Origin: a virus
DNA: 64,000 nucleotides
IMG/VR virus record: IMGVR_UViG_3300035661_000038
Location: 17,956 to 81,955 of that record
Direction: 5' to 3' (one strand)
Below are positions 50,046 to 63,009 of the stretch, one piece after another. Numbering within the stretch: the first letter of the stretch is position 1; every line of letters begins with the position of its first letter. The notes beneath the pieces are model-generated. The model did no database searches. It was not told where the DNA came from and worked only from the letters and a program-made list of their open reading frames with translations. The position numbers and the translations under genes are program-made.

Positions 50046-50745
50046 TCACGCAACGACTCCCGATTGCCGCGCGAGGTGCTCGGCGTGCGCGGGTGGGATC
50101 GCCTGCGAAAGCTTTCCGACCGACATCCAATCGATCCCCATCGCGGCCCGCTGCACGTCGAGCGGGATGCGCCACACGCCAACCTCGACGGTCTTGCGCC
50201 GGTTCGTGCGGTTCGTCGCCTGCGGAAACCGCGCTTCCCACCGCGAATGGTCACAACGGCTTGGCGGCGCCGCCGCGAACGACGTCTCGAAGATCCGATG
50301 CCGCCGCACATCAAGCCCGAACACCGACCCGCAGAGCATCAGCGGGTCTTCGAGCGGCGCGCCGACAACGTTCTCGATCACATACGAGATACCCGACGCG
50401 CATAGCCTCTCACGCACCACGAGGATCATGTTCTCTCTCTCTCTCTCGCACGTGATCGGGACGACACTTGTACGCGGTGAACGCCTGACACGGAGGCGAC
50501 GCCCAGATGAAGTCGAACCCGTCGAGCGGGTACTCAGACTGCTCCTCGACGTCGACGCCCGTTACGATGAAACCGGCGCGCGCGAGCCCCATCGACGCGC
50601 CGCCCGCACAGCAGAAAAGATCGAGCGCACGCGGGATTCGCCTACGAGGCACAGCGAGCCCCTTCGGAAGCACAAGCACCTCCACCTTCGCCTCGCTAGG
50701 CAACGACACGCGCTCTCGCCCACTTGCCATCGCTGACCACCTCAA
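50046..50745 (-). pseudogene. C5-cytosine DNA methyltransferase split by a frameshift at (GA)8
   Basis: LDLFCCAGG (motif I) and ASPPCQ (IV) in one frame; IENV (VI) and VRRHR in the next. Confidence 0.85.
50432..50447. repeat. (TC)8/(GA)8 dinucleotide tract
   Basis: Sits exactly at the MTase frame junction. Confidence 0.9.
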
Positions 50746-52654
50746 TGCGACCGGGGAGCATCTCCACCGTGTCGGGCGAGTGCGAGATCACAAAAGCTTG
50801 CTCGATCGCATACCTACGAGAGAGAAAGCCCGCCAAGTGCGTGGCGAATGCTCGTCGATGAAATCGGTCAAGCGCGCCGAACGGCTCATCGATGAGCGCC
50901 ACGCTCCACGCACTGCTGCGATCCTCGCGAAGCCACGCCGACGCCGCGAGCTGCACCGCGCCGCCCGCGAGATCTTCCGCCGCACCGCTGCGGTTCGAGA
51001 GCTCGATCTCCAACTTGTTCACCAGATTCGGGCCACGTGCGGCGTTGCACCGAGTGCACGCCTTCACCTTCGCACTCGTCGGGAACGCAAGCCCACACGC
51101 GTCACACGACGTCGCGAGCCCGCTGCCCTCACGTGACCAGCGCACGCTCACCGAGAGCCCCACGCCGGCGTCGGCGAGCATGTCGTTCGCGAGCGCCTCG
51201 ATCTCACCAAGCGCGCCCTCGGCGAGCCGACGCTGGATCCCATGCTTGCCGATCACGGCGAGACAGGCGCGCGAGAGCTCGACCTCGGCGCGCTCCGCGG
51301 CAAGCGCCGTCTGGAGCCGCGCGATCTCCGCGTCCGCTCGCGCGATCTCCGAGATCACGCGCCGGATCGCATCGCGCTCCGTCCTCAGATCCACAACCTC
51401 GTTCTGCGCGGCGTCGAGCGCCGCCTGGAGCGGCTCGCGCGCCACCGAGATACCAATGCCCGCGTCCAACGCCGCATCGATCTGGTCCTGGAGCGTGCCC
51501 GCGCGCTCGCGCATCGACTCCAGCCGCGCGCGCCGACGTTCGAGATCCTGGGCATCGCGCTCCGCGTCGCTCGCATCGCTCGCGGCCACACGGCGCGCTT
51601 CTTCGAGCCGTTCGCGATCCTTCTCCGCCGCGTCGAGCAGCGCTCGGTTCTCCGTCCGCCGCGCGTTGATCTGCGCGCGCGCCGGGCACTCCATCTCCGC
51701 GACCGGGCACCGCCCGTCGAACTGCCCCGACGCGACGGCGCGGCGCTTGTGGACAAGCGCAGAGGCGGCGCTGACATCAGCAGCAAGCTTGGCCGCGTCG
51801 TGACGAAGACGCACTGCGCGCTCAGTAATGTTCTCCGCGTCGCAGTCGGCGATGTCTTCCGCGAGCAGCTTGCCATCGACGTTGAGCTTGCCGAGCTCGC
51901 AACGCGCCGCTTCGAGGCGCCACGCCGCCTCGTTCGCGTCAATCGCGGCACGCGCGGCGTCGTACTTCTCTTGCGCAACGACGAGATCCACTTCGCACGA
52001 CGCGAGATCGCCCGCGAGCTCGGCCGACTCCTTCGCGTTCGCCGACGCGAGCGAGCGCGCGCGGAGCTCCATCTGGATCGTCAACGCACGCTCCAACTTC
52101 TCGACGCGCTCGACGAGCGTCGACAGCGCATCGCTTTCAGCCTTCTCGGCAGCCTGGAGCGGGCCGAGCCGCAACCACCCCGACACAATGTCCATGCGCT
52201 CACTCGCGCGCATCAACACAAGCCGTCCCATCGCCCGCTGCTCGAAGTACGAGCTCGCACGGAAGTCTTCTGACGAAAGCCCGATCGCGCGCACGATCTC
52301 CGCCTCCGCCGCCTCACCCATCGCCGCCTCACCGCCGCTCGCCGGATACCACCATACCTTCGTCGCACCCGAGCCGCTCCGAGAGCGCGTGATGCGAGCA
52401 CCGTTGTCGAACCTCAAGACCACCTCACCCGCCGTCTCGCCGCGCGAGATCCACCCGCCCGCCGTCGAATGGATGTGGCGCCCGTAAAGGCCAAACTCAA
52501 TCGCGCGCAGCAGCGAGCTCTTGCCCGCCCAGTTCGAGGCGTCAGGGTTGTCTGCGCGCTGCGCGACGATCGCGTAGGTCTTCGCTTCGAGATCGAGCAG
52601 ATGCTCACCGCGGTAGCATTCCCAGTTCCGAATCTTGATCGAAGCGATACGCAC
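50696..52654 (-). CDS. Rad50/SbcC-like ATPase (T4 gp46-like)
   Basis: NWAGKSS, YFEQ, coiled coil with CPV hook, RSG, LIDEPFGALD and ISH. Confidence 0.9.
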   Translation of the reverse strand: MRIASIKIRNWECYRGEHLLDLEAKTYAIVAQRADNPDASNWAGKSSLLRAIEFGLYGRHIHSTAGGWISRGETAGEVVLRFDNGARITRSRSGSGATKVWWYPASGGEAAMGEAAEAEIVRAIGLSSEDFRASSYFEQRAMGRLVLMRASERMDIVSGWLRLGPLQAAEKAESDALSTLVERVEKLERALTIQMELRARSLASANAKESAELAGDLASCEVDLVVAQEKYDAARAAIDANEAAWRLEAARCELGKLNVDGKLLAEDIADCDAENITERAVRLRHDAAKLAADVSAASALVHKRRAVASGQFDGRCPVAEMECPARAQINARRTENRALLDAAEKDRERLEEARRVAASDASDAERDAQDLERRRARLESMRERAGTLQDQIDAALDAGIGISVAREPLQAALDAAQNEVVDLRTERDAIRRVISEIARADAEIARLQTALAAERAEVELSRACLAVIGKHGIQRRLAEGALGEIEALANDMLADAGVGLSVSVRWSREGSGLATSCDACGLAFPTSAKVKACTRCNAARGPNLVNKLEIELSNRSGAAEDLAGGAVQLAASAWLREDRSSAWSVALIDEPFGALDRFHRRAFATHLAGFLSRRYAIEQAFVISHSPDTVEMLPGRIEVVSDGKWARARVVA

Positions 52655-52663
52655 GCGCGCCTC

Positions 52664-53035
52664 CTACTGCGGCCAGCCCTCACGCTCGGCGCGCGCCTTG
52701 AACCTCACGACGTCGACCGAGTACGCAGTGCCATCCTCGGCAGGCGTGACCTCGGGCCAGAGCCGATGCAGCTCCCGCTCGTAGATGTCCGCCTCGTCGG
52801 CGATGCGGCGCTGGAGGTCAGGCAGCGTCACAAGCCCCTTCTCGACAAGCAACGCGGTGAGCGCGTTGAGCTCGCAGCGCTGGTAATGGCGACACTCGTC
52901 GAGCTCGCGGAACTGCTTGAATGCGCCGTTGTTGTTCGTCGCCATGCCCGCGATGCGCCCGACCGCGTAATGCGCGTACAGCCGCAACCGCATGAACGCT
53001 CGCATCAATCTCGTCTCATGGTCGATCACGCCCAT
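52664..53035 (-). CDS. Hypothetical protein
   Basis: AGGAGG SD; 123 aa. Confidence 0.6.
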   Translation of the reverse strand: MGVIDHETRLMRAFMRLRLYAHYAVGRIAGMATNNNGAFKQFRELDECRHYQRCELNALTALLVEKGLVTLPDLQRRIADEADIYERELHRLWPEVTPAEDGTAYSVDVVRFKARAEREGWPQ

Positions 53036-53044
53036 AGGTTCCTC

Positions 53045-53497
53045 CTAAAGCCCCACTTCACCGAGCCGGCGTTCGACCCGCGCGAGCAACGCCGCGTGGT
53101 CCGGGTAAGACGATGCCGCGACGATCTCCCCCGCGACGTCGCGCGCGCCGACGCGCTGGATGTGGCGGACGCGCTGCTGAGTGACGACAGCGCTACGCCG
53201 CGTCGGCAGGACGCGGACAGCGACGGCGTAGCGCTCGACCCAATCACGCGCCCGAGCAACATCCGCCAGCGGGCAGTCGACCGGCGGACGGAGCCGGACG
53301 ATCGACCCCTTCACGAGCCCACCGTACGTCTCCTCGGCGTTCGAGTGCGTCCAGAACGGGCTGTCCGCGTCGAAGGTGACGAGACGCGCGGTGGCGACCT
53401 CGACGTGCTTGGCGAGCGGCGGACCAAAAGGCGCCTTTTGGTCGTCGACGGACGCCGGCGTCGGCATCGAGATCCTCGGCATCGGGATCCTCGGCAT
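53045..53497 (-). CDS. Hypothetical protein, possibly a detached Mre11/SbcD C-terminal domain
   Basis: TGATG start; MPRIPMPRISMP; lies between sbcD-like and sbcC-like genes. Confidence 0.5.
   Translation of the reverse strand: MPRIPMPRISMPTPASVDDQKAPFGPPLAKHVEVATARLVTFDADSPFWTHSNAEETYGGLVKGSIVRLRPPVDCPLADVARARDWVERYAVAVRVLPTRRSAVVTQQRVRHIQRVGARDVAGEIVAASSYPDHAALLARVERRLGEVGL
53422..53443. repeat. 22-bp dispersed palindrome copy 12 (GGCGCC, perfect)
   Basis: In the low-complexity 5' part of 53045..53497. Confidence 0.95.
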
Positions 53498-53591
53498 CAG
53501 AATCCCCTCACGATCCGCGCTTCGACTTCGGCGGTCGTGCACGCATCGACGATGCTCTGCCCCTCCAACCGATCGTTCTCTCGCGACATCC

Positions 53592-54356
53592 TCAGACCTC
53601 CAGGAGCAGGTAGCCGGGACGGTTGCGCTCCTCGCCGAACGTCAGCCGCGCGAGCGACCCGACGACGTAAAGCGACGTCTCACCGAACCCGTTGGTGGTC
53701 GGCGGCCCCTCGAAGACACGTTGCGCGCCGGCGTCGAGCCGGTAGACGCCGCGCTCGTGGTAGTGCCCCGAGACCACAACCGCGGCGTTGGTCGCGATCT
53801 GCCGAATCGGCAGCGCGCGCTCGGCGCCGCGGGGCATCTCGTTGGTCTCCTCGCCCGGGTCGATGCCAGGGATCGTGAGGTGCGAGAACACGACGAGCGA
53901 CCGCTTCGACTGCTGCGCCGCGAGCTCGGCGAACGCCGCCGCGTAGTCGACGCCACCCGCGACGTGCGGAAGCGCGATGACGTCGTGCGACCACCCAGGC
54001 CACGCAAAGCGCGCGGGCTTCTCGGCGACGAGCGTATGAAAGTCGAGCGCCCGGAGCGGCGAGAGCGACGTGGTGCCGAACCCGTCGCCCACGACGTCGT
54101 GGTTACCCGCGATCCATAACGTCGGAATCCCGCAGTTGCCGAGCGCGGTGGCGATACCGATCGCAACCTCGACACACCGCAAGACCACCGACCCCGAATC
54201 AGGGTCGCAGAGGTCACCGACGAACGCGAACAGGTCGGCCCCACCCGACGCCGCGGCATCGGCCGCCGCGCGCATCGCGTCGCGGATCTCGTCGAACCGC
54301 GCCACGCCCGCGGTCGTCCAATCGAGGTGCGCGTCTGAACAAGCAACGATCTTCAC
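53592..54356 (-). CDS. Mre11/SbcD-like metallophosphoesterase nuclease
   Basis: SDAH, VGDLCD, AGNHD and SGHYH motifs; GTG start with GGAGG SD. Confidence 0.88.
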   Translation of the reverse strand: MKIVACSDAHLDWTTAGVARFDEIRDAMRAAADAAASGGADLFAFVGDLCDPDSGSVVLRCVEVAIGIATALGNCGIPTLWIAGNHDVVGDGFGTTSLSPLRALDFHTLVAEKPARFAWPGWSHDVIALPHVAGGVDYAAAFAELAAQQSKRSLVVFSHLTIPGIDPGEETNEMPRGAERALPIRQIATNAAVVVSGHYHERGVYRLDAGAQRVFEGPPTTNGFGETSLYVVGSLARLTFGEERNRPGYLLLEV

Positions 54357-54493
54357 CGCGACCTCCGCTTCCACGGCGCGGCGAGCTTGAAGCCCTTCGC
54401 CGTCGACATCCTCGCGGCTTCGATGAACCGCTCGTCGCTCCCCCACGTCTCGTCGACTTCGACGTATCCGTGATCCAGAAGTTCGATTCGCAT
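54353..54493 (-). pseudogene. thyX: Truncated ThyX N-terminal fragment (46 aa)
   Basis: MRIELLDHGYVEVDETWGSDERFIEAARMSTAKGF resembles the ThyX N-terminus; stops before the catalytic motifs. Confidence 0.65.
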
Positions 54494-54496
54494 CCG

Positions 54497-55765
54497 TCAA
54501 CTCTCCACAACACCATCAGCGTCATGCTCGATCGGCGGCGCCTTCTCAAACGCCGCGCGCACCTCGCGCTCCAACGCCACAACGAGATCAGGCGACTCGT
54601 GAAGCAGCTTGAGCGCCTTGAGCTCGCCCTGGACCTTCTTCCCGACGAACGTGATCCACGAGCCGCTCTCATCGACGACTCCGAGCCGCCGCCCGAGCTC
54701 CAGGAGATCACGCGGCCGATCGAACCCCTCGGGGAACATCGACCCGTTCGACGTGTGGAAATACGCAACCTGCACGCGGTCGGTCTTCTGCGCGACCTTG
54801 GTCTTGTGAATGGTGATGCGGTGACGCTCGCCGATCGCAGGCAAGCGCTCCTCGCCCTTCTCAGCCTTACGCTCGTAAACCCATCCCGCGCGCTCGACGC
54901 GGATGGCCTGCGACGCCTCGTAATAGAGCGACTTGCCGCCGCCGACCTTGAACGCGCGCCCCGCAGCCTTGTCGCGCGCGTCAGCATCCGGGTCCTCAGC
55001 CTCGCGCGCAATCACGAGCATCGCCGTCTGCGTCGAGGCGAGGAGCGGCACGAGCTCGTCCATCCACGCCGCATTCATCGCCGCGCGGATCTGCGCCGCG
55101 CGCCCACCGTACCCGTCGACACCATGCTTCTCAGCACCCTCGACGAGCTTCTTCATCAGGTTCTGCGGCACGAGCTTGCGGATCGAGTCAACGACGATGA
55201 GCGCAGAGGTGTCCGGCGCGATCTTGCTGTCAGAGCGGAGGCGCGCGATCTCGCGGCAGAAGTCGCGCACCGCGTCGACCGTCGCTTCGTACGACGTCGG
55301 CCGCATCGCGAAGAACCGATCCGAGTCAGCGTGTGCACCCAGGAGGTGCTCCACCCAATCGAGCGGCGTCGTGAACTCCGCGTCGATGAGCGCGGCGTAG
55401 TGGTTCCGCGCAAGAAAGCTCCCGATGAGCCCGAGCGCGTAGATCGTCTTGCCGTGGTTCGACGGACCGTGAAGCAACATGAACCGCTCGATCGGCAACC
55501 CGCCGACGCCGCCCGCGTGGTCGTACTGGACGAACCACGTCGGCACCGCCCTCACAAGCCGGAGCACCTCGCGCGCGGGTCGGAACCCGCCGAAACGGTC
55601 CGCCACATTGTCGAGATCCTTCTGCCTGGCGCGCGAGCTCTCGCGACTCGCGACACGCGCGGCAGGCTTCTTAGCCGCGGGCTTCTTAGCTACAGGCTTC
55701 TTCGTCGTCTTCTTGACCGCGGGCTTCTTCGCCGCCGCGATCGGCATCGGCTCGCGAGGCATCAT
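54497..55765 (-). CDS. RecA/UvsX-like recombinase with a histone-H1-like N-terminal tail
   Basis: GPSNHGKT, LIDAE, LIVVDS, GGGKSLYY and SGSWI...QG motifs. Confidence 0.9.
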   Translation of the reverse strand: MMPREPMPIAAAKKPAVKKTTKKPVAKKPAAKKPAARVASRESSRARQKDLDNVADRFGGFRPAREVLRLVRAVPTWFVQYDHAGGVGGLPIERFMLLHGPSNHGKTIYALGLIGSFLARNHYAALIDAEFTTPLDWVEHLLGAHADSDRFFAMRPTSYEATVDAVRDFCREIARLRSDSKIAPDTSALIVVDSIRKLVPQNLMKKLVEGAEKHGVDGYGGRAAQIRAAMNAAWMDELVPLLASTQTAMLVIAREAEDPDADARDKAAGRAFKVGGGKSLYYEASQAIRVERAGWVYERKAEKGEERLPAIGERHRITIHKTKVAQKTDRVQVAYFHTSNGSMFPEGFDRPRDLLELGRRLGVVDESGSWITFVGKKVQGELKALKLLHESPDLVVALEREVRAAFEKAPPIEHDADGVVES

Positions 55766-56037
55766 CCCGCCTTGCCCGCAACGAGCCCGACGAACTGCAC
55801 GCCGTGCATCTCGAAGCCGCTCGACGGGCGCTTGAGCGCGACGAGGCTCACTACGCTCTCGGACGGCAGCGACACACACAGCTCCGTCCGCCGCGCACGG
55901 GCGGCGTCGAGCGCCCGGACGATCTCGTCGGGCCGCGTGTCATCGAAGAACACGACGTCGTGGACCCGACGACCCGCAACAACGTGGATGTAGTTGTTCG
56001 CGCGACTGCGCGCGGGAATCGAAATTGAGATCCTCAT
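55762..56037 (-). CDS. Hypothetical protein
   Basis: GGAGG SD; ATGA coupling. Confidence 0.5.
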   Translation of the reverse strand: MRISISIPARSRANNYIHVVAGRRVHDVVFFDDTRPDEIVRALDAARARRTELCVSLPSESVVSLVALKRPSSGFEMHGVQFVGLVAGKAG

Positions 56038-56079
56038 CGCCTCTCACCTCCAGCGCGCGTCGATGCCGCGCATCGACGC

Positions 56080-56108
56080 AAAAGGGGGAGCCCACTCGGG
56101 CTCCCCCT
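56080..56108 (-). terminator. Intrinsic terminator after the SSB gene
   Basis: AGGGGGAGCCC-GAGT-GGGCTCCCCCT-TTT. Confidence 0.75.
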
Positions 56109-56127
56109 CTCGCACGTCACCGAGCTC

Positions 56128-57450
56128 TCAGAACGCGAGCTTGCGCTTGCCCGCTGCCGACGCCGACTCGACGGACGGCTTGGCCGCCACCTTGGGAGGG
56201 TCGGCCTTCTTCGTCTGCGGGGGCGGCGCCGCGGGCGCGGCGTCCTCGGCGTCGAGCGGCGCGCCGCACTTCGGGCACTCCGTCGCCGTCGCGCTCACCG
56301 GCTCGCCGCACTCCTCGCACTCGAACGGTAGATCGTCATCCTCGTCGTCGAACGGCGTGGAATCCGGCTTCGCCGAGCTCACGGCCGCGCGCGGCGCCGC
56401 GTCTTCGTAGTTCTCGTCACGACGCCGCGACGATGCCTTCGGCGGCTTGTCCTTCGAGTCGCGCGGCTTGCTCATGTCGTGGCCCTCGAAGATGCGATCC
56501 CACGGCAGCTCGACGAGCGAGTACCGCTCCATCAGCGCACGCAGCATCGCCGCGTCGCCCGGGACGCACTGATCATTCACACGATCGATCACCGCACGCG
56601 CGTCGGAGCGAATGAGCTTCTCGATCTCGTCGGTGAGCTCGACCTTCGAGAGAGCGAGATCGATCGCGTGGTACTTCTTGTTGAACTCCTTCTCTGCCGG
56701 CCGGTGATACCAGCGGATCGCGCACGGATTCCGCGCGAAGCTCCCCTCTTCGACCCCGAGACGATCGCGGCGGTCGGCGATGACGCCGCGGACCTTCTCC
56801 CCAAGCAACGCCGTCTCGACCGCGATCTGAACGCCACGCGAGGGTTCCTTGTTGTCGACGACGGCGAAGACATACGAGAGCTTCGCCATCATGTTCTCCT
56901 TCCAGACGTCCTTGAGCGACAACTTGGCGTCGCGGAACCTCTTGAAGGTGAGCGGCCCCTCGTCGGCGAAATCCTCGCGGTCACGCGGGAACCCGCCGTA
57001 AATGCCCGCTGCATGAATGACGACCGCATCCGCAGGGTCCGACCCCTCGAAACGGAAGATCGGCTCCAGCGGATCGATCTGTCCATCGAGCACCGCCACG
57101 CGAACGATGTCCGCCATACGGCACATCGGGCACCGGCACGGCGGCGCGACACGGTGACCGTCGTCGTCGATCTTGAACTGCTTCTTGAGAACCTCTTCGG
57201 ACTCGTGGCAGTTGAACTTCATCGACCAGACCACGCGCTCCATCTCACGCGTGTCCTTGTTCTCGCGCGTCTCGACCCGGTAAAAGCCGTGCTGCCACAC
57301 AGGCTTCGGCGAGAGCGCCGTGTGCATCCACGTGTCGACCTGGGGCGGCTCGCGCTTCTTCCAATTGCCGAGGAACTTGCCGCCGCCGCCACCGTCACGG
57401 CCACTGTGGGAGAGGAACTCGTCAAACGGATCGTGCTCGGTCGTGGACAT
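56128..57450 (-). CDS. Single-stranded DNA-binding protein (gp32-like) with C-terminal zinc ribbon
   Basis: GGGGKF, WQH, CPMC and YVFAVVD; acidic DDEDDDLPF; CEEC...CPKC. Confidence 0.65.
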   Translation of the reverse strand: MSTTEHDPFDEFLSHSGRDGGGGGKFLGNWKKREPPQVDTWMHTALSPKPVWQHGFYRVETRENKDTREMERVVWSMKFNCHESEEVLKKQFKIDDDGHRVAPPCRCPMCRMADIVRVAVLDGQIDPLEPIFRFEGSDPADAVVIHAAGIYGGFPRDREDFADEGPLTFKRFRDAKLSLKDVWKENMMAKLSYVFAVVDNKEPSRGVQIAVETALLGEKVRGVIADRRDRLGVEEGSFARNPCAIRWYHRPAEKEFNKKYHAIDLALSKVELTDEIEKLIRSDARAVIDRVNDQCVPGDAAMLRALMERYSLVELPWDRIFEGHDMSKPRDSKDKPPKASSRRRDENYEDAAPRAAVSSAKPDSTPFDDEDDDLPFECEECGEPVSATATECPKCGAPLDAEDAAPAAPPPQTKKADPPKVAAKPSVESASAAGKRKLAF

Positions 57451-57529: not shown

Positions 57530-58162
57530 CTACTTGCGAAGCGTCGTCAACATCGTGTCGAGGGTGCGACACCGCCCTTTCCAAAGCTCGGCGAACCGCT
57601 CCAGATGCTCCGTCGTCTTGCGGAGCCGAATCGATCGCATCTCCTGGTCGCGAAACTCGTCGGCGAAGTTGCGCGCGCAGAACAGCTCCAGGTCCTCTTT
57701 GGTGATGGCCTTGTTGCGCGTGCCATCGGCCTTCTCACGCTGAAGCTCGCGATTGGCGCGCTCCATCATCGCCGCACGAATCGGCTTCATGTCGAGGTCG
57801 TACCGCTCCTGCTCGGCGCGCGCGGCGAGATAGAGCTGATGCGCCTCGCGCGCGTTGGACTCCGCGTCGTCGAGCGCCTTGCGGAGGGTGCCGTAGTCGT
57901 TGCGGTTCTCGCCGACCTTGAGCGCCGCCTCCAGCCGGTCGTACACCGGCAAAACGTCGACAGTGAAGACGCGCTCGACGAGCTTGCCAAAGTCGCCACC
58001 GAGCTTCGGCGACTTGCCGATGAACTCGTCGAACGGATCGGGCGTGGGCGGGTCCGGAATCGGAGGCGTCGCGGGGGCGTCGGGCGCCTCAACGAGCATC
58101 GGGGATGGCGCCGTCTCGGGCGTAGTAGTCACGGGCAACGTCGTTCGGGGCACTCGGGCCAT
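57530..58162 (-). CDS. UvsY-like recombination mediator
   Basis: Helical C-terminus KAITKEDLE...AELWKGRCRTL; lies between pol and SSB; AGGAG SD. Confidence 0.55.
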   Translation of the reverse strand: MARVPRTTLPVTTTPETAPSPMLVEAPDAPATPPIPDPPTPDPFDEFIGKSPKLGGDFGKLVERVFTVDVLPVYDRLEAALKVGENRNDYGTLRKALDDAESNAREAHQLYLAARAEQERYDLDMKPIRAAMMERANRELQREKADGTRNKAITKEDLELFCARNFADEFRDQEMRSIRLRKTTEHLERFAELWKGRCRTLDTMLTTLRK

Positions 58163-60914
58163 CGGAGCTCCTATCCGGCGCCGAGGTGGCGCCGGTCGCA
58201 AGATGCCGCGCGAGCTCCGCGGCGAGCTCAGGCGAGCCATCAACACGCGCCTTGAGGTCGAGCTCGACGACAGCGCCGTTCTCATGATGCAGCCGCAACA
58301 CCATCGCCCGCGCGCCCGGATGAGCGGCAAGGATCGCGCGCACCAGCGCCGGATCCGTCACCGCGAACATCTCCATCGCCAGGTCGACGTAGAACGGCAC
58401 CTCTGCCGAGCGGATCTGGCCCGCGATGACGGGCGTCTCGGGCGCGACCAAAAAGCGCCTTTTGGTCTCCCGGGCACGCGAGGAGCTCGCTGGCGCGTCG
58501 AAGAGGCTCACCTGGGCCGACGGGGCGTCCGGCACCTCGGAGGCGGCAGACGCCCCCTTCCCGGCGACCGACGCCCGGACCTTGCGCGGCTTGGGCGGGC
58601 GCGACTTGCTGAACCGCTTCCAATCACAGCCGGGGAACGCCGCCGCCAAAAGCCGCTCCGCCGGCGGGTAGACGAGGTTCTCCCATAGGTAGTGCCGGTC
58701 ACACTCCCCGGCATAGTCGTCCGCCGGGATGACGACAGCGGGCGTCGTCGACGCGTCGAGCACGACAAACCCCACACGCGTCCCCTCGCCGACCTCGACA
58801 CCGCGGCGCGCGAGCTCGCGACCGACGACGACGTGGCGCGGCTGAGCGCACTCACCGCCATCAGCCTTCTTGCGGGCCTTGTACTGACCAAGCTCACGCG
58901 AGAGGTTCTTGGTGATGATAACGTCACACGCGGGCAACTCGTCGCCGAGCACGTGGGCGCGCATCGCCTCAACCGCCGCGACGTACGCCGCGGGATCGTC
59001 CGTCGCCAGCGCGAACGGCTCCTCCCAATCGCCCACGAGCAGCTTCACAACGGTCTCCTGGAGCGCGCGCGCAAGCCGCGATGAGTCACCGCGCTTGTAC
59101 TCCAGGCCCTTGATCTCCGGCTTCGAGTCGCGCTGAGCCGCCTTGCCCTTGTAGTGGAGATAACGGCCGACGTACTTCTTGCCAGCGACGAAGACCACAC
59201 GGTCGAACGCTTTCTCGTACGCGACATAAACATCGTTCTCGCGACACCCCTGCTCCGCGACGAGCCGCGGGTAGAGCTCCGCGTTGCACCACTTCGTAAA
59301 TTCGCGAAACTCATCGACCGTGCACCCGACGACGAAGATCGAATCAGTGTCGATGTAGATGACCTTCCACCCACGCTCCTCGGCGGCGTGTTTGGTGTGC
59401 TTGATGAGCCACGCACACGTCTGCGTCACGCTCTCGGCGATCTCCTTGTCGAAGTAACGCGAGAACGGCGAGCCGATGACCCCGTAGAACGAGTTGATCG
59501 CAGCCTTGTAGGCGGCGGCGTGGCGCGCAGCATTCTCCCAATCGGGCGTCCCCGGAGGAAGACTCGACTTCTTCGCATCCCAATCGTCGCGCAACGCGAT
59601 GAGCTGCTTGAGCGCCAGCGGCAACATCCCCTCGATGTCAGTGCGGAAGGCCACCTTCGTTGTCGGCGCCTCGCACGCGAGCTCGGGCGATGAATGGTTG
59701 GCGCGGAGCGTCCTGAGCTTTGTCTCAGGGCTCATGTTCCAGGTGATGATCGCGCTCGGGTACTGGCGCCGAAAGTCAGCGACGTGGACATCACGGATCA
59801 CGCCATCCATCGTCGGCTTGAGCACATAGGCACCAGCGAACTGCTCGTTGATCTCCTGAAACTCCTTCGTCGGGAAGTGCACCCCGCGCTCGCGTCCAAG
59901 CCGAAACATGAACGCGTCAACCTGCGAGATCGGGTGGAGCCCGCGCGAGTCGAGAAACACGCCAGCAGCCTGGGCGAGAGTCCACGACAGCTCGATGTAG
60001 CCGGTCTTCGCCTCGATCTTGCGAAGCAGGTGCGTGTCCTGCGCGTTGTACTTACGGAGACGCTCGCGACGCACGCCGCCCGCCTCCCACTCCTGCCATG
60101 TCTTCGACGCATCGAAGTCGTCCTTGCCCTCGTTGATGAGAGCCATCGCGACGTCCTGAAGCTTGAGCGAGGTCTTGTCGTCGCCCGAGTCGCTCTCGCG
60201 GTGGTTGCGCTTGTAGCAAGCGAGGTGGTCGAGCCAGAGCCACCGCCGCACGTCGACGCGCGCGCGCACCTCACGTACGCGACCATGGAGGACGGGAAAG
60301 TCGAAACGATCACCGTTCCACGCGCACAAGAGCTCGAACGACTGGGCCGCGCGAAAGAACGACTCGATGAGCGCCTTCTCAGCAGCGTCAGTGTCGGCGG
60401 TGAGAAGCTCGCTCCACTCGTTGCCCGCATCGTCGACGAGCGCCCACGAGAGAATCCGCGCGCCGCCTTCGCGCGCCTTGGCAAAGGGCACCCGCGAATC
60501 AGTCTCCAAGTCGAAGTACCCGCGTCTCGGACGCGCGACGCGCGCGCCAATGTCCGTCATCCACCGGCGCACCGGGTGAACGTCACCCTCGAACGCCGGC
60601 GCTGCACCGAAAAACGGGTTCGCGATGCCCTCGTCGTTCGTCGGCTTGCACGCTTTCTCGCGCACGTAACGATCGCGCCACGAGATGCGCAACCACTCGC
60701 CCTCCGTCGCGACCGCGCGCACCGCCGCGTGGTTACGGATCGCGCGCATCCGATCCATGTCAACGTCGGCGACGCGGTGATAGCTAACCCACTCGGCGCG
60801 CACCGCGCGTGTCTCGGTCCCGCCATCAGCGGCACGGTAGAGCGCGACAATCTGATCCCCATCAAGCCACGCGTTGAGGATCTCGGGGGCGGGATGCTTG
60901 GAATCGAGCTGCAT
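58089..60914 (-). CDS. Family B DNA polymerase with 3'-5' exonuclease and C-terminal extension
   Basis: FDLET, WNGDRFD, YNAQD, DFRRQYPS, KAAINSFYG, IDTDS and KKY motifs. Confidence 0.95.
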   Translation of the reverse strand: MQLDSKHPAPEILNAWLDGDQIVALYRAADGGTETRAVRAEWVSYHRVADVDMDRMRAIRNHAAVRAVATEGEWLRISWRDRYVREKACKPTNDEGIANPFFGAAPAFEGDVHPVRRWMTDIGARVARPRRGYFDLETDSRVPFAKAREGGARILSWALVDDAGNEWSELLTADTDAAEKALIESFFRAAQSFELLCAWNGDRFDFPVLHGRVREVRARVDVRRWLWLDHLACYKRNHRESDSGDDKTSLKLQDVAMALINEGKDDFDASKTWQEWEAGGVRRERLRKYNAQDTHLLRKIEAKTGYIELSWTLAQAAGVFLDSRGLHPISQVDAFMFRLGRERGVHFPTKEFQEINEQFAGAYVLKPTMDGVIRDVHVADFRRQYPSAIITWNMSPETKLRTLRANHSSPELACEAPTTKVAFRTDIEGMLPLALKQLIALRDDWDAKKSSLPPGTPDWENAARHAAAYKAAINSFYGVIGSPFSRYFDKEIAESVTQTCAWLIKHTKHAAEERGWKVIYIDTDSIFVVGCTVDEFREFTKWCNAELYPRLVAEQGCRENDVYVAYEKAFDRVVFVAGKKYVGRYLHYKGKAAQRDSKPEIKGLEYKRGDSSRLARALQETVVKLLVGDWEEPFALATDDPAAYVAAVEAMRAHVLGDELPACDVIITKNLSRELGQYKARKKADGGECAQPRHVVVGRELARRGVEVGEGTRVGFVVLDASTTPAVVIPADDYAGECDRHYLWENLVYPPAERLLAAAFPGCDWKRFSKSRPPKPRKVRASVAGKGASAASEVPDAPSAQVSLFDAPASSSRARETKRRFLVAPETPVIAGQIRSAEVPFYVDLAMEMFAVTDPALVRAILAAHPGARAMVLRLHHENGAVVELDLKARVDGSPELAAELARHLATGATSAPDRSSDGPSAPNDVARDYYARDGAIPDAR
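58446..58467. repeat. 22-bp dispersed palindrome copy 13 (AGCGCC)
   Basis: In the polymerase C-terminal linker. Confidence 0.95.
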
Positions 60915-61004: not shown

Positions 61005-62309
61005 CTACTCGTCGGCGTCAGCCGCCGATTCGGCGAGGCGCTTGGCCTCACAAATCACCTGGAGCTCGCCCTGGGCGTTGTGACTGATGGTGAACTTCAT
61101 CACCACCTCGTTCTCGAACTCCATCGTGAAGAACGGCTCGTCGGTGAGCTTCTTCGCGGGCCTGGGCGCCTCGCCGCGCTTCGCCGGCTTGGCCATGATG
61201 GCGATACGCTGGCGCTTGGGGATCGTCGCGATCGAAATGACGTTGTGCTTCTTGAGCTTATCGGGCACCTCGCCGCCGGGCACCGCGAGGACCTTCTTGC
61301 GTCCGCTGTTGATGTTCTGCCCGCGCCGGGTGCCGTCGCGCGCCGCGCGCCGCACCGGGTTCTCTGCCTGCATCTTCTCGACGGCCTGCTTGATCTCCTG
61401 GTAAGTGCCGCCCGATTTGACCGCCTCGACGAGGAGCTTGGTCTGCTCAGGGGTCGGCGCCTTGAGCGCGAGCCCAAGCTTCGAGTAGCCGAACACCTCG
61501 ACCTCTTCGCGAGTGAAGTGCTTGGCGACGTCCATGATGAGGAACGCGTTCGCCACCGTGAATCCACACTCCGCGCGCACCCACCCCTCGAACCCCGCCG
61601 TCTTGTAGACGCCCGGCTTGCCGTCGGCATCGCAGCGCTGCTTGTAAAGCTGGCTGTCGTAGACTTCGAGCAGCTTGCGCCCAAGCTCCCAGTGGGCAGT
61701 CGCAACACCCGACTTGAGGCGGCGGATCTCTTCGACGGCTGCATCGAGATCGGCTTCACCGGCGCGCGCCAGCTTGATCTTCTCCTCACGCTTCGCAAGC
61801 GCGATGACGCGCTTCTCTTCGTCCTTGGCCTTCTCCTCACGCGTCGGCTCGATGACCGCTTCGATGACCGGCATCGTAGGCACGGGCGCGGGCTTGGCGG
61901 GCTTCGGCTGCTTCGCCTCCACAGCCTCCTTCTTCTTCTTCGCACGCTCCTGGATCTTCTTCGTCTTCTCGTCGACGGCGACACCCGGCTCGACAGGCAT
62001 CTTGGCGTCGTCCTCGGGCGAGGCACCGTACGTCGACGGCAAGACGCCCTCGACGAGCTTGCCGTCGTCGTCGATTGCGCAAAACGGGCAGCACACCGTA
62101 AAGCGCCCGGGGAATGGCGCCTTGCACTCGGTGCACATGTAGAAATCTTCACCATCGTCCTTCATGGCGAAATGCTTGGCGAGACGCTTGGCCGTGTCCT
62201 CGATCTCGCCCGCGGGGTCGAGCCCCTCCGCAACGAGGCACGCTGCGATGCTCCGCGCGCTCACCTTGCTCAGATCGATCGACTTGCCCGGTTCCACCGT
62301 GTTGCTCAT
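61005..62309 (-). CDS. Zinc-finger plus DUF3102-like DNA-binding protein
   Basis: CTEC...CCPFC; HWELGRKLLEV...FEGWV...FTVANAFLIM. Confidence 0.6.
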   Translation of the reverse strand: MSNTVEPGKSIDLSKVSARSIAACLVAEGLDPAGEIEDTAKRLAKHFAMKDDGEDFYMCTECKAPFPGRFTVCCPFCAIDDDGKLVEGVLPSTYGASPEDDAKMPVEPGVAVDEKTKKIQERAKKKKEAVEAKQPKPAKPAPVPTMPVIEAVIEPTREEKAKDEEKRVIALAKREEKIKLARAGEADLDAAVEEIRRLKSGVATAHWELGRKLLEVYDSQLYKQRCDADGKPGVYKTAGFEGWVRAECGFTVANAFLIMDVAKHFTREEVEVFGYSKLGLALKAPTPEQTKLLVEAVKSGGTYQEIKQAVEKMQAENPVRRAARDGTRRGQNINSGRKKVLAVPGGEVPDKLKKHNVISIATIPKRQRIAIMAKPAKRGEAPRPAKKLTDEPFFTMEFENEVVMKFTISHNAQGELQVICEAKRLAESAADADE

Positions 62310-62343: not shown

Positions 62344-63009
62344 CTATGCCGCGGCGTCATCGAGTCGCGCGACCACCGCGCGCACGACCGACGCCACGAG
62401 CTGCTCCGCACGGTGCTCACTGCCCAAGCGCAGCTCGTAGCGCGCCTCCACGTCGTCGAAGAGAATCCGCGCCGCCTCTCCGATGTCCCCGCCCGCGAGC
62501 CCGAGTGCGCGCACGCTCACGAGCTCCCGCGGCGACTCGCACACCGCCTCCAACCGCTTCACCGCCTCGCGCCGCTCGACGAACTCGTGCTGTTCGGGCG
62601 GCACGCTCGTCCGTTCCGCCATCCGCGCCTCGAACGCCCCGTCCTCGTCGCCATCGCGGACCATGCTCGTAAACGCGAGCTCGTAGCGGCTCGGCGCGCT
62701 GTCGGCGCCGCGGTGGCGGTAACTCCCGCGCGCCTTGTGCCCGCGCTTCTTCGCGTACGTGATCGCGTTCCACTCGACATACCGCGTCGCCTCGACGCCA
62801 CGCGCGGGGTCGAACTGCGCGATCTTTTGCCACGCCTCCAGCATGAGGTCCTGGCGCACGTCGTCGCGCGAAACCCACGGCGGCAACTTCCAACGCCGAT
62901 GGATGTAGGCGGCGAGTCGATCCCACCGCGCCATCCGCGCAACGCGCGAGAAGTCGACCGCTCCAACCGTCGCCGCCTCGATCTCGTTCAGCTCACGCCT
63001 CGCCATCAC
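62344..63009 (-). CDS. Phage-encoded RNA polymerase sigma factor
   Basis: Region-2-like DDVRQDLMLEAWQKIAQFDPARGVEATRY; C-terminal region-4-like GGDIGEAAR. Confidence 0.75.
   Translation of the reverse strand: MMARRELNEIEAATVGAVDFSRVARMARWDRLAAYIHRRWKLPPWVSRDDVRQDLMLEAWQKIAQFDPARGVEATRYVEWNAITYAKKRGHKARGSYRHRGADSAPSRYELAFTSMVRDGDEDGAFEARMAERTSVPPEQHEFVERREAVKRLEAVCESPRELVSVRALGLAGGDIGEAARILFDDVEARYELRLGSEHRAEQLVASVVRAVVARLDDAAA

Follow-up and report, generated by a model that had tools for sequence, protein, structure and literature searches.

DNA polymerases of families B and C are unrelated replicases. The family C enzyme Pol III alpha (DnaE) carries an internal motif for the beta clamp, and in Escherichia coli and Thermus the end domain of DnaE1 binds tau, a subunit of the clamp loader. 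In the E. coli enzyme, residues 1079-1160 have been identified as the tau-binding domain, with tau_c binding the polymerase tail (PMC4703070), and a tau-binding end domain has been reported for DnaE1 and DnaE3, never for DnaE2 (PMC3919608). Among the family-B DNA polymerases (PolBs), bacterial groups with beta-clamp motifs have already been described (PMC12926913). The subject of this study is a PolB gene on the minus strand of a 64,000-nucleotide stretch of viral DNA (the window), which comprises bases 17956-81955 of the IMG/VR record IMGVR_UViG_3300035661_000038. Beyond its polymerase core, the predicted protein carries a candidate beta-clamp motif, QVSLF, followed by a tail domain of about 70 amino acids which is almost certainly a true homologue of the DnaE1 C-terminal domain. 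An earlier note on this DNA had proposed a likeness between the tail and the extreme C-terminal domain of DnaE, and five largely independent tests have upheld that proposal.

The homology of the tail is detectable by profiles alone, since searches with a single sequence remained blank: phmmer with the tail returned nothing relevant from PDB sequences and one low-complexity match from 1.8 billion representatives, and a word-indexed search returned the tail itself only. Known PolBs were the only longer proteins recovered when the tail alignment was used in a word-indexed search, and a full-length PolB profile against the PDB listed PolBs throughout, giving no information on the tail. The tail alone produced sub-threshold noise against Pfam and NCBIfam (Prim-Pol, hemophore), a blank result attributable to poor conservation of the DnaE end domain, the identification of which took purpose-built domain hidden Markov models (HMMs) and HMM-HMM comparison (PMC3919608).

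A tail-only alignment of 14 sequences obtained from DNA references (A2) was used for the PDB, fold and genome searches. The three best matches of the tail profile to PDB sequences were all extreme C-termini of Pol III alpha, and nothing else was matched; they comprised residues 1100-1177 of 1184 in the Mycobacterium tuberculosis enzyme (7pu7_A, E 1.5e-6) and residues 1122-1177 of 1220 in the Taq enzyme (2hpi and 3e0d, E about 4e-5). A six-frame search with A2 matched the end of a DnaE frame in a metagenome-assembled genome (MAG) at E 2.9e-6, and when 41 genomes of that MAG's phylum were searched in the same manner, 22 had a match; among the matches listed, 19 of 26 places were near the C-terminal 12-50 residues of DnaE orthologues. 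A malic enzyme matched at E 5e-4 in the genome search was rejected as a false positive, for which reason per-genome E-values near 1e-3 were not counted and weight was placed on the stronger matches. Comparison of 63 phage tails with 19 DnaE tails by hhalign gave a probability of 97.8% (E 8e-13) over 72 columns, which span the first strand, the L..L..vL..HPG helix-turn, the pV.l.v strand and the start of the V..S..L helix. In the reverse search, an HMM of DnaE tails had the PolB tail as its sole match (E 3.1e-4) among 1107 six-frame open reading frames (ORFs) of the phage, with the next at 0.85. The signature of the domain can be written as L..iL..HPG.r.v.L.l....G..v.l.l...V.gSpeL..eL, and the stretch VRAILAAH...ARHLA, quoted in the earlier note, lies within it at residues 869-917. 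An iterated HMM detected the domain in 71 sequences among the PolB homologues, and the HPG turn and the start of the V..S..L helix are conserved in the tail copies.

The predicted fold leads to the same region of DnaE. AlphaFold2 modelling on A2 gave a mean pLDDT of 82.9, with core blocks at about 90, and a strand-helix-helix-strand-strand-helix topology. When the model was compared with 48,161 chains by VIA-align, the first rank was taken by Taq Pol III alpha (2hpi_A, Z 7.2, rmsd 2.4 Å over 64 residues, 1129-1194) and the second by E. coli Pol III alpha (5fku_A, Z 5.4, residues 1058-1149), unrelated folds reaching at most 4.9. A comparison of the tail with the DnaE end by Foldseek or by profiles had been suggested in the earlier note; in addition to the hhalign result given above, Taq Pol III alpha structures made up the five best Foldseek matches, one being the alpha-tau_c complex 4iqj, at weak E-values of 0.1-0.3. 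The BFVD library of viral folds held no convincing match to the tail model. An OB domain was sought ahead of the tail without a match, and a low-confidence linker of 35 residues alone lies between QVSLF and the domain.

The remainder of the protein is a family-B DNA polymerase. The ORF comprises 952 codons from a TTG, and a start at the internal ATG is likely, giving a protein of 941 amino acids, the same length as P0002, its copy in the protein collection. The ORF matches PF00136 with an E-value of 2.4e-33 and 116 bits (cut-off 23) over residues 343-734, the exonuclease families PF13482 and PF10108, and phrog_262 (E 3e-54), and its best relatives among PDB sequences are archaeal-type PolBs (E 1e-35), with alignments reaching residue 783. 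Motifs A (DFRRQYPS), B (KAAINSFYG) and C (YIDTDS) are all intact in the translation, as are Exo I (DLETDS), Exo II (NGDRFDF) and Exo III (YNAQD), and the columns of these polymerase and exonuclease motifs are invariant across 42 homologues. Given the intact motifs, the gene product is best explained as an active, proofreading family-B replicative polymerase, and it is the sole polymerase found so far in the phage genome. The family-C core (PF07733) has no match anywhere in that genome, so that the end domain alone is common to DnaE.

The position given for QVSLF in the earlier note, after the polymerase core, is exact (Table 1). The pentapeptide is surrounded by a linker rich in Pro, Ala, Ser and Lys, located between the core and the folded tail, and the flanking part of the linker that was modelled has low pLDDT. 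In the homologues the core ends with a conserved AAFP..DW...RPxKxR, beyond which three kinds of tail have been observed: one stops after the basic stretch, another is closed by a Q-x-x-L-F peptide, in many cases with no residue after it (...GQGQLF, ...QRSLF, ...NQLRLF), and in the third kind this peptide is followed by a further domain. Post-core linkers from 173 homologues were scored for Qxx[LMI]F or QLxLxL, and the motif was present in 81 of them, whereas 200 shuffles of these linkers gave 4.3 on average and 10 at most. The linkers contain the strict pentapeptide 60 times in 15,840 residues and the polymerase cores 23 times in 131,291, a density some 21-fold higher in the linkers, and many of the remaining linkers have degenerate forms such as QLELP, QLGLQ and DLPLF. 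The excess over shuffled linkers, together with the 21-fold enrichment over cores, indicates that this class of motif is a conserved feature of the clade and not a chance pentapeptide. QVSLF fits the bacterial Q-x-x-L-F consensus and not the PIP box, and it is very probably a working beta-clamp motif.

The protein collection contains 479 PolB homologues at E < 1e-10, and further PolB loci were taken from viral contigs (47) and MAG bins (7). No cultured phage exceeds about 29% identity to the PolB, and the clade has no cultured member. The matches in MAG bins span several phyla and are probably binned phage contigs, and near-identical DNA was found in sequencing runs from microbial-mat and sediment metagenomes only. 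No host could be identified from cluster names, kinship to cultured phages, MAG bins or sequencing runs. On a tree of polymerase cores, the DnaE-like domain is present in 70 of 172 PolBs (about 40% of those sampled) with at least 24 gains or losses, compared with 54.6 for shuffled labels, and it is therefore inherited within sub-clades, yet often lost or gained. These counts are approximate, as some tails missed by the HMM (e.g. P0005 and P0087) resemble further copies by eye. One sub-clade of 48 members is devoid of the domain, and a recognisable clamp motif is missing as well from many of these. The 70 domain-bearing copies showed no frame breaks, and the domain always follows a flexible linker.

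The record itself is complete, with 81,955 bp, 94-bp direct terminal repeats and 67% G+C, and its genes were called by third-position G+C together with family scans. According to the earlier note, neither a clamp nor a clamp loader was visible in the window, a statement which holds for the whole record: the complete genome has no match to the beta-clamp families PF00712 and PF02768, to PCNA (PF00705) or to the clamp-loader AAA+ family PF13177, in scans where the positive controls were matched. The same note regarded a clamp and loader encoded elsewhere by the phage as evidence against its proposal, and no such pair has been found in the complete genome or in 47 viral records of relatives, 25 of which have a completeness of 90% or more; PF13177 is matched in none of the 47. 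One of these related records, L012 (G085:C1:67342-67698), does encode its own DnaN, a 410-amino-acid frame matching PF00712 at E 1.9e-11, with no loader. Its PolB ends in GQGQLF, with no DnaE-like domain, and this pairing of a clamp peptide with DnaN ties the clade to beta-type clamps.

Other replication functions are well represented. A DnaG-like primase (328 amino acids, with a CHC2 zinc finger and Toprim) and a DnaB-like helicase (531 amino acids, with both N- and C-terminal domains) are encoded outside the window, at the left end of the genome (L070:1211-3785). In 39 of the 54 related loci their homologues lie no more than 10 kb from PolB, which indicates that the genome ends cut through a replication module. 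A T4-like recombination set occupies 50696-57450 and comprises RecA/UvsX-like, Mre11-like and Rad50/SbcC-like proteins together with a 440-amino-acid Zn-ribbon protein for which gp32-like look-alikes were found among Atlas models, a lead only; these members are present in 42-46 of the 54 loci. The replication region also encodes a RuvC-like resolvase, a ParB-like protein, methylases, a UvrD-like helicase and an apparently helical conserved protein of 210 amino acids. Directly upstream of PolB lies the gene for a 434-amino-acid protein (61005-62309), with homologues in 37 of the 54 loci, which combines a Cys4 ribbon at the N-terminus with a Lys/Glu-rich linker and a C-terminal half that is helical. 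It has no match in Pfam or PHROG and is modelled poorly in the Atlas; a role as initiator or DNA-binding protein is possible. The Atlas look-alikes of the 434- and 440-amino-acid proteins include no clamp and no loader. Two genes upstream of PolB, a 221-amino-acid protein (62344-63009) matches sigma-70 region 2 (E 2.4e-5) and is kept in 32 of the 54 loci.

Taken together, these features suggest a model in which the C-terminus of PolB would act as a two-part tethered docking module for the bacterial replisome. QVSLF, in its flexible linker, would occupy the hydrophobic cleft of the host's beta clamp in the manner of the C-terminal QLGLF of E. coli Pol II and the internal motif of Pol III alpha, and the DnaE-like domain would hold PolB at the clamp loader via tau. 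The host DnaX complex would load host beta at phage primers, PolB would take the fresh clamp through QVSLF, and multimeric tau would couple the leading- and lagging-strand copies of PolB in the seat of Pol III alpha. The phage would bring PolB, the DnaB-like helicase, the DnaG-like primase, a probable SSB and the T4-like recombination set, and would borrow the clamp and the loader, a borrowing suggested by the presence of helicase and primase in a phage where no clamp or loader was found. Homology and gene content are the grounds on which we infer that PolB binds beta and tau and competes with Pol III alpha. The chance that the DnaE-like domain binds tau appears to be roughly even, and the whole model, tau binding included, is slightly favoured for this virulent-looking 82-kb phage. 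A wider proposal, that an uncultured clade of phages of about 80-110 kb assembles a hybrid replisome in which phage PolB is seated on tau through a captured DnaE end, is more tentative and falls a little short of an even chance.

Several considerations weigh against docking to tau. The DnaE-like domain is patchy in the clade, and its presence in 70 of 172 PolBs with so many gains and losses means that many relatives can do without it. Clamp and loader were judged absent with Pfam models, and several conserved phage proteins have no assigned family, among which such functions might be present. In E. coli, the OB domain of DnaE forms a rigid unit with the end domain and tau, and this domain is absent from the phage PolB. 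Furthermore, the C-terminal domains of tau are lineage-specific, the E. coli and Thermus versions being non-homologous and bound to different sides of the polymerase tail (PMC4703070), and a homologous domain on the polymerase side does not, for that reason, guarantee the same partner. The DnaE3 of Bacillus subtilis has the domain, and its retention at the fork depends on SSB, as stated in a passage of PMC3919608 citing Costes 2010. These last two points would also favour a re-targeted end domain, bound to a phage protein (the helicase, the primase, the gp32-like or the 434-amino-acid protein) or to host SSB, with a T7-like coupling that dispenses with tau; the phage has its own helicase and primase, and a self-contained fork is conceivable. 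Nonetheless, no flanking phage gene clearly tracks the presence of the domain. The best candidate is the UvrD-like helicase, present in 8 of 14 loci with the domain and 5 of 40 without it (p 0.002, uncorrected and with kinship not controlled), while the replicative helicase and primase are equally frequent in both groups. A clamp would, in addition, still have to be loaded, and the 48 records yielded no loader. Re-targeting is considered unlikely.

Somewhat less likely still is that the end domain serves as a structural or regulatory appendage with no partner, shielding the motif, contacting DNA or the thumb, or persisting as the decaying remnant of a fusion. The patchy spread, the many inferred losses and the 48-member sub-clade would agree with an appendage, but the conserved HPG turn and V..S..L helix start, the confident fold and the unbroken frames speak against it, as does the constant position behind a flexible linker, which resembles that of a tethered docking domain. 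As regards the clamp motif, QVSLF might serve a processivity factor of the phage that has escaped recognition, instead of host beta: the polymerases of T4 and RB69 likewise have a hydrophobic clamp peptide at their end, no family could be assigned to several conserved neighbours, and viral clamps can diverge beyond recognition (Kazlauskas and Venclovas, PMC3201878). This is very unlikely, given that two of the unassigned neighbours appear by sequence to be helical or Zn-ribbon proteins and not beta-rich clamps, that no PCNA, gp45-like or beta match exists in the phage, that one relative encodes a plain DnaN, and that the pentapeptide is of the bacterial type. Finally, the likeness between tail and DnaE could be coincidental, arising from a small alpha/beta fold that is common, considering that a single tail sequence finds nothing, that the Foldseek E-values are weak and that a Z of 7.2 is within the range reachable by unrelated models. 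Such a coincidence is scarcely credible when five largely independent tests converge on the same 70-80 residues at the end of DnaE and on nothing else, in alignments spanning the whole domain with shared motifs. Docking of the tail to host tau, with QVSLF on host beta, remains the preferred reading.

Table 1. Features of the PolB gene and of the recombination genes in the window; positions are those of the window and residues those of the 952-codon frame.
Feature	Position	Strand	Basis
Family-B DNA polymerase gene	58089..60914	-	ATG 60914; open from TTG 60947; stop 58089-58091; PF00136, phrog_262
3'-5' exonuclease domain, residues ~144-311	60015..60518	-	PF13482 E 1.7e-10; Exo I-III
Polymerase core, residues ~343-783	58599..59921	-	PF00136 343-734; PDB alignments to 783; motifs A-C
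Basic Pro/Ala/Ser-rich linker, residues 784-811, RPPKPRK...	58515..58598	-	Translation; RPxKxR after AAFP..DW conserved in homologues
QVSLF, beta-clamp-binding-type pentapeptide, residues 812-816	58500..58514	-	Motif class conserved in clade
Second flexible linker, residues 817-851	58395..58499	-	pLDDT 59-69 for model residues 1-20
DnaE-like end domain, residues ~852-921	58185..58394	-	PDB profile, fold, hhalign, reverse HMM
C-terminal extension, residues 922-952, low complexity, ends DVARDYYARDG	58092..58184	-	Tails of P0002, P0003, P0004
Rad50/SbcC-like ATPase	50696-52654		Family scan
Mre11-like phosphoesterase	53592-54500		Family scan
RecA/UvsX-like protein	54497-55879		Family scan

Additional observations concern the tail and its surroundings. 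In the C-terminal extension, the three closest PolBs (P0002, P0003 and P0004) share the short peptide D[IV]R.[FY]YER, and another PolB sub-clade ends in ...REWEARCA[NS]; these conserved peptides after the DnaE-like domain could constitute a third docking peptide. The next gene starts inside the extension, at 58162 and in another frame, and that downstream ORF is kept in 44 of the 54 related loci. A 22-bp palindrome, GACCAAAA-N6-TTTTGGTC, occurs in 13 copies in the window, against 0 expected, and in three more in L070; by appearance the copies are mostly intergenic, and the palindrome was absent from all 120 other loci fetched. One copy (58446-58467) falls within the PolB frame, where it encodes TKRRFLV, a part of the linker that joins QVSLF to the DnaE-like domain. 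A resemblance was also considered between the HPG..v.l.l part of the tail and a conserved stretch in the C-terminal part of alphaproteobacterial tau (..P.V.A.L..FPGA.I..VR.., L097:901-1425, alignment A3), and was discarded, as hhalign gave 13.6% over 23 columns and homology is unsupported.

With regard to novelty, PolBs with a clamp motif of this sort are already known, and the addition of a DnaE domain is apparently undescribed. No DnaE end domain on a PolB is mentioned in the published surveys consulted on PolB diversity and viral replicases (PMC7544198; PMC12926913; PMC3201878), a feature which escaped them because the clade has no cultured member. A natural chimera of families B and C would show the clamp-loader interface to be a portable module, and would offer an experimental handle on the share that tau itself has in processivity, polymerase recycling and the coupling of leading and lagging strands. 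It would also represent a defined phage route to takeover of the host replisome and a possible source of peptides or domains that would rival Pol III alpha for tau. If the hybrid replisome is real, it would combine a coupled, processive phage fork with a host replicase starved of its organiser.

Among the known systems, the order of elements is that of DnaE1, as seen in E. coli (residues ~920-1160), Taq (2hpi and 4iqj) and M. tuberculosis (7pu7), where the clamp peptide is likewise followed by the C-terminal domain. The two end domains share the L..L..HPG..pV.l and V..S..L signatures and the same fold, at an identity of about 20-25% between the phage tail and any DnaE. Nonetheless, the phage module sits on a family-B polymerase, unrelated to DnaE's family C, and it does without the OB domain that separates motif and end domain in DnaE1. 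E. coli Pol II and the bacterial G1 and G3 PolBs are also family-B enzymes with active exonuclease and polymerase sites and a Q-x-x-L-F peptide after the core for contact with a bacterial beta clamp (PMC12926913; PMC4770218). Pol II, a cellular repair and restart enzyme, has no domain after its motif, the C-terminal QLGLF, whereas the phage PolB is nearer archaeal-type PolBs in sequence and adds the DnaE domain. The gp43 of T4 and RB69 is similarly a PolB with a C-terminal clamp peptide, and in both cases UvsX/RecA-like, Mre11/Rad50-like and probable gp32-like proteins are found around it. T4, however, encodes its own clamp (gp45) and loader (gp44/62), whereas no loader was found in this phage or the 47 related records, and a clamp was found in one of those records alone.

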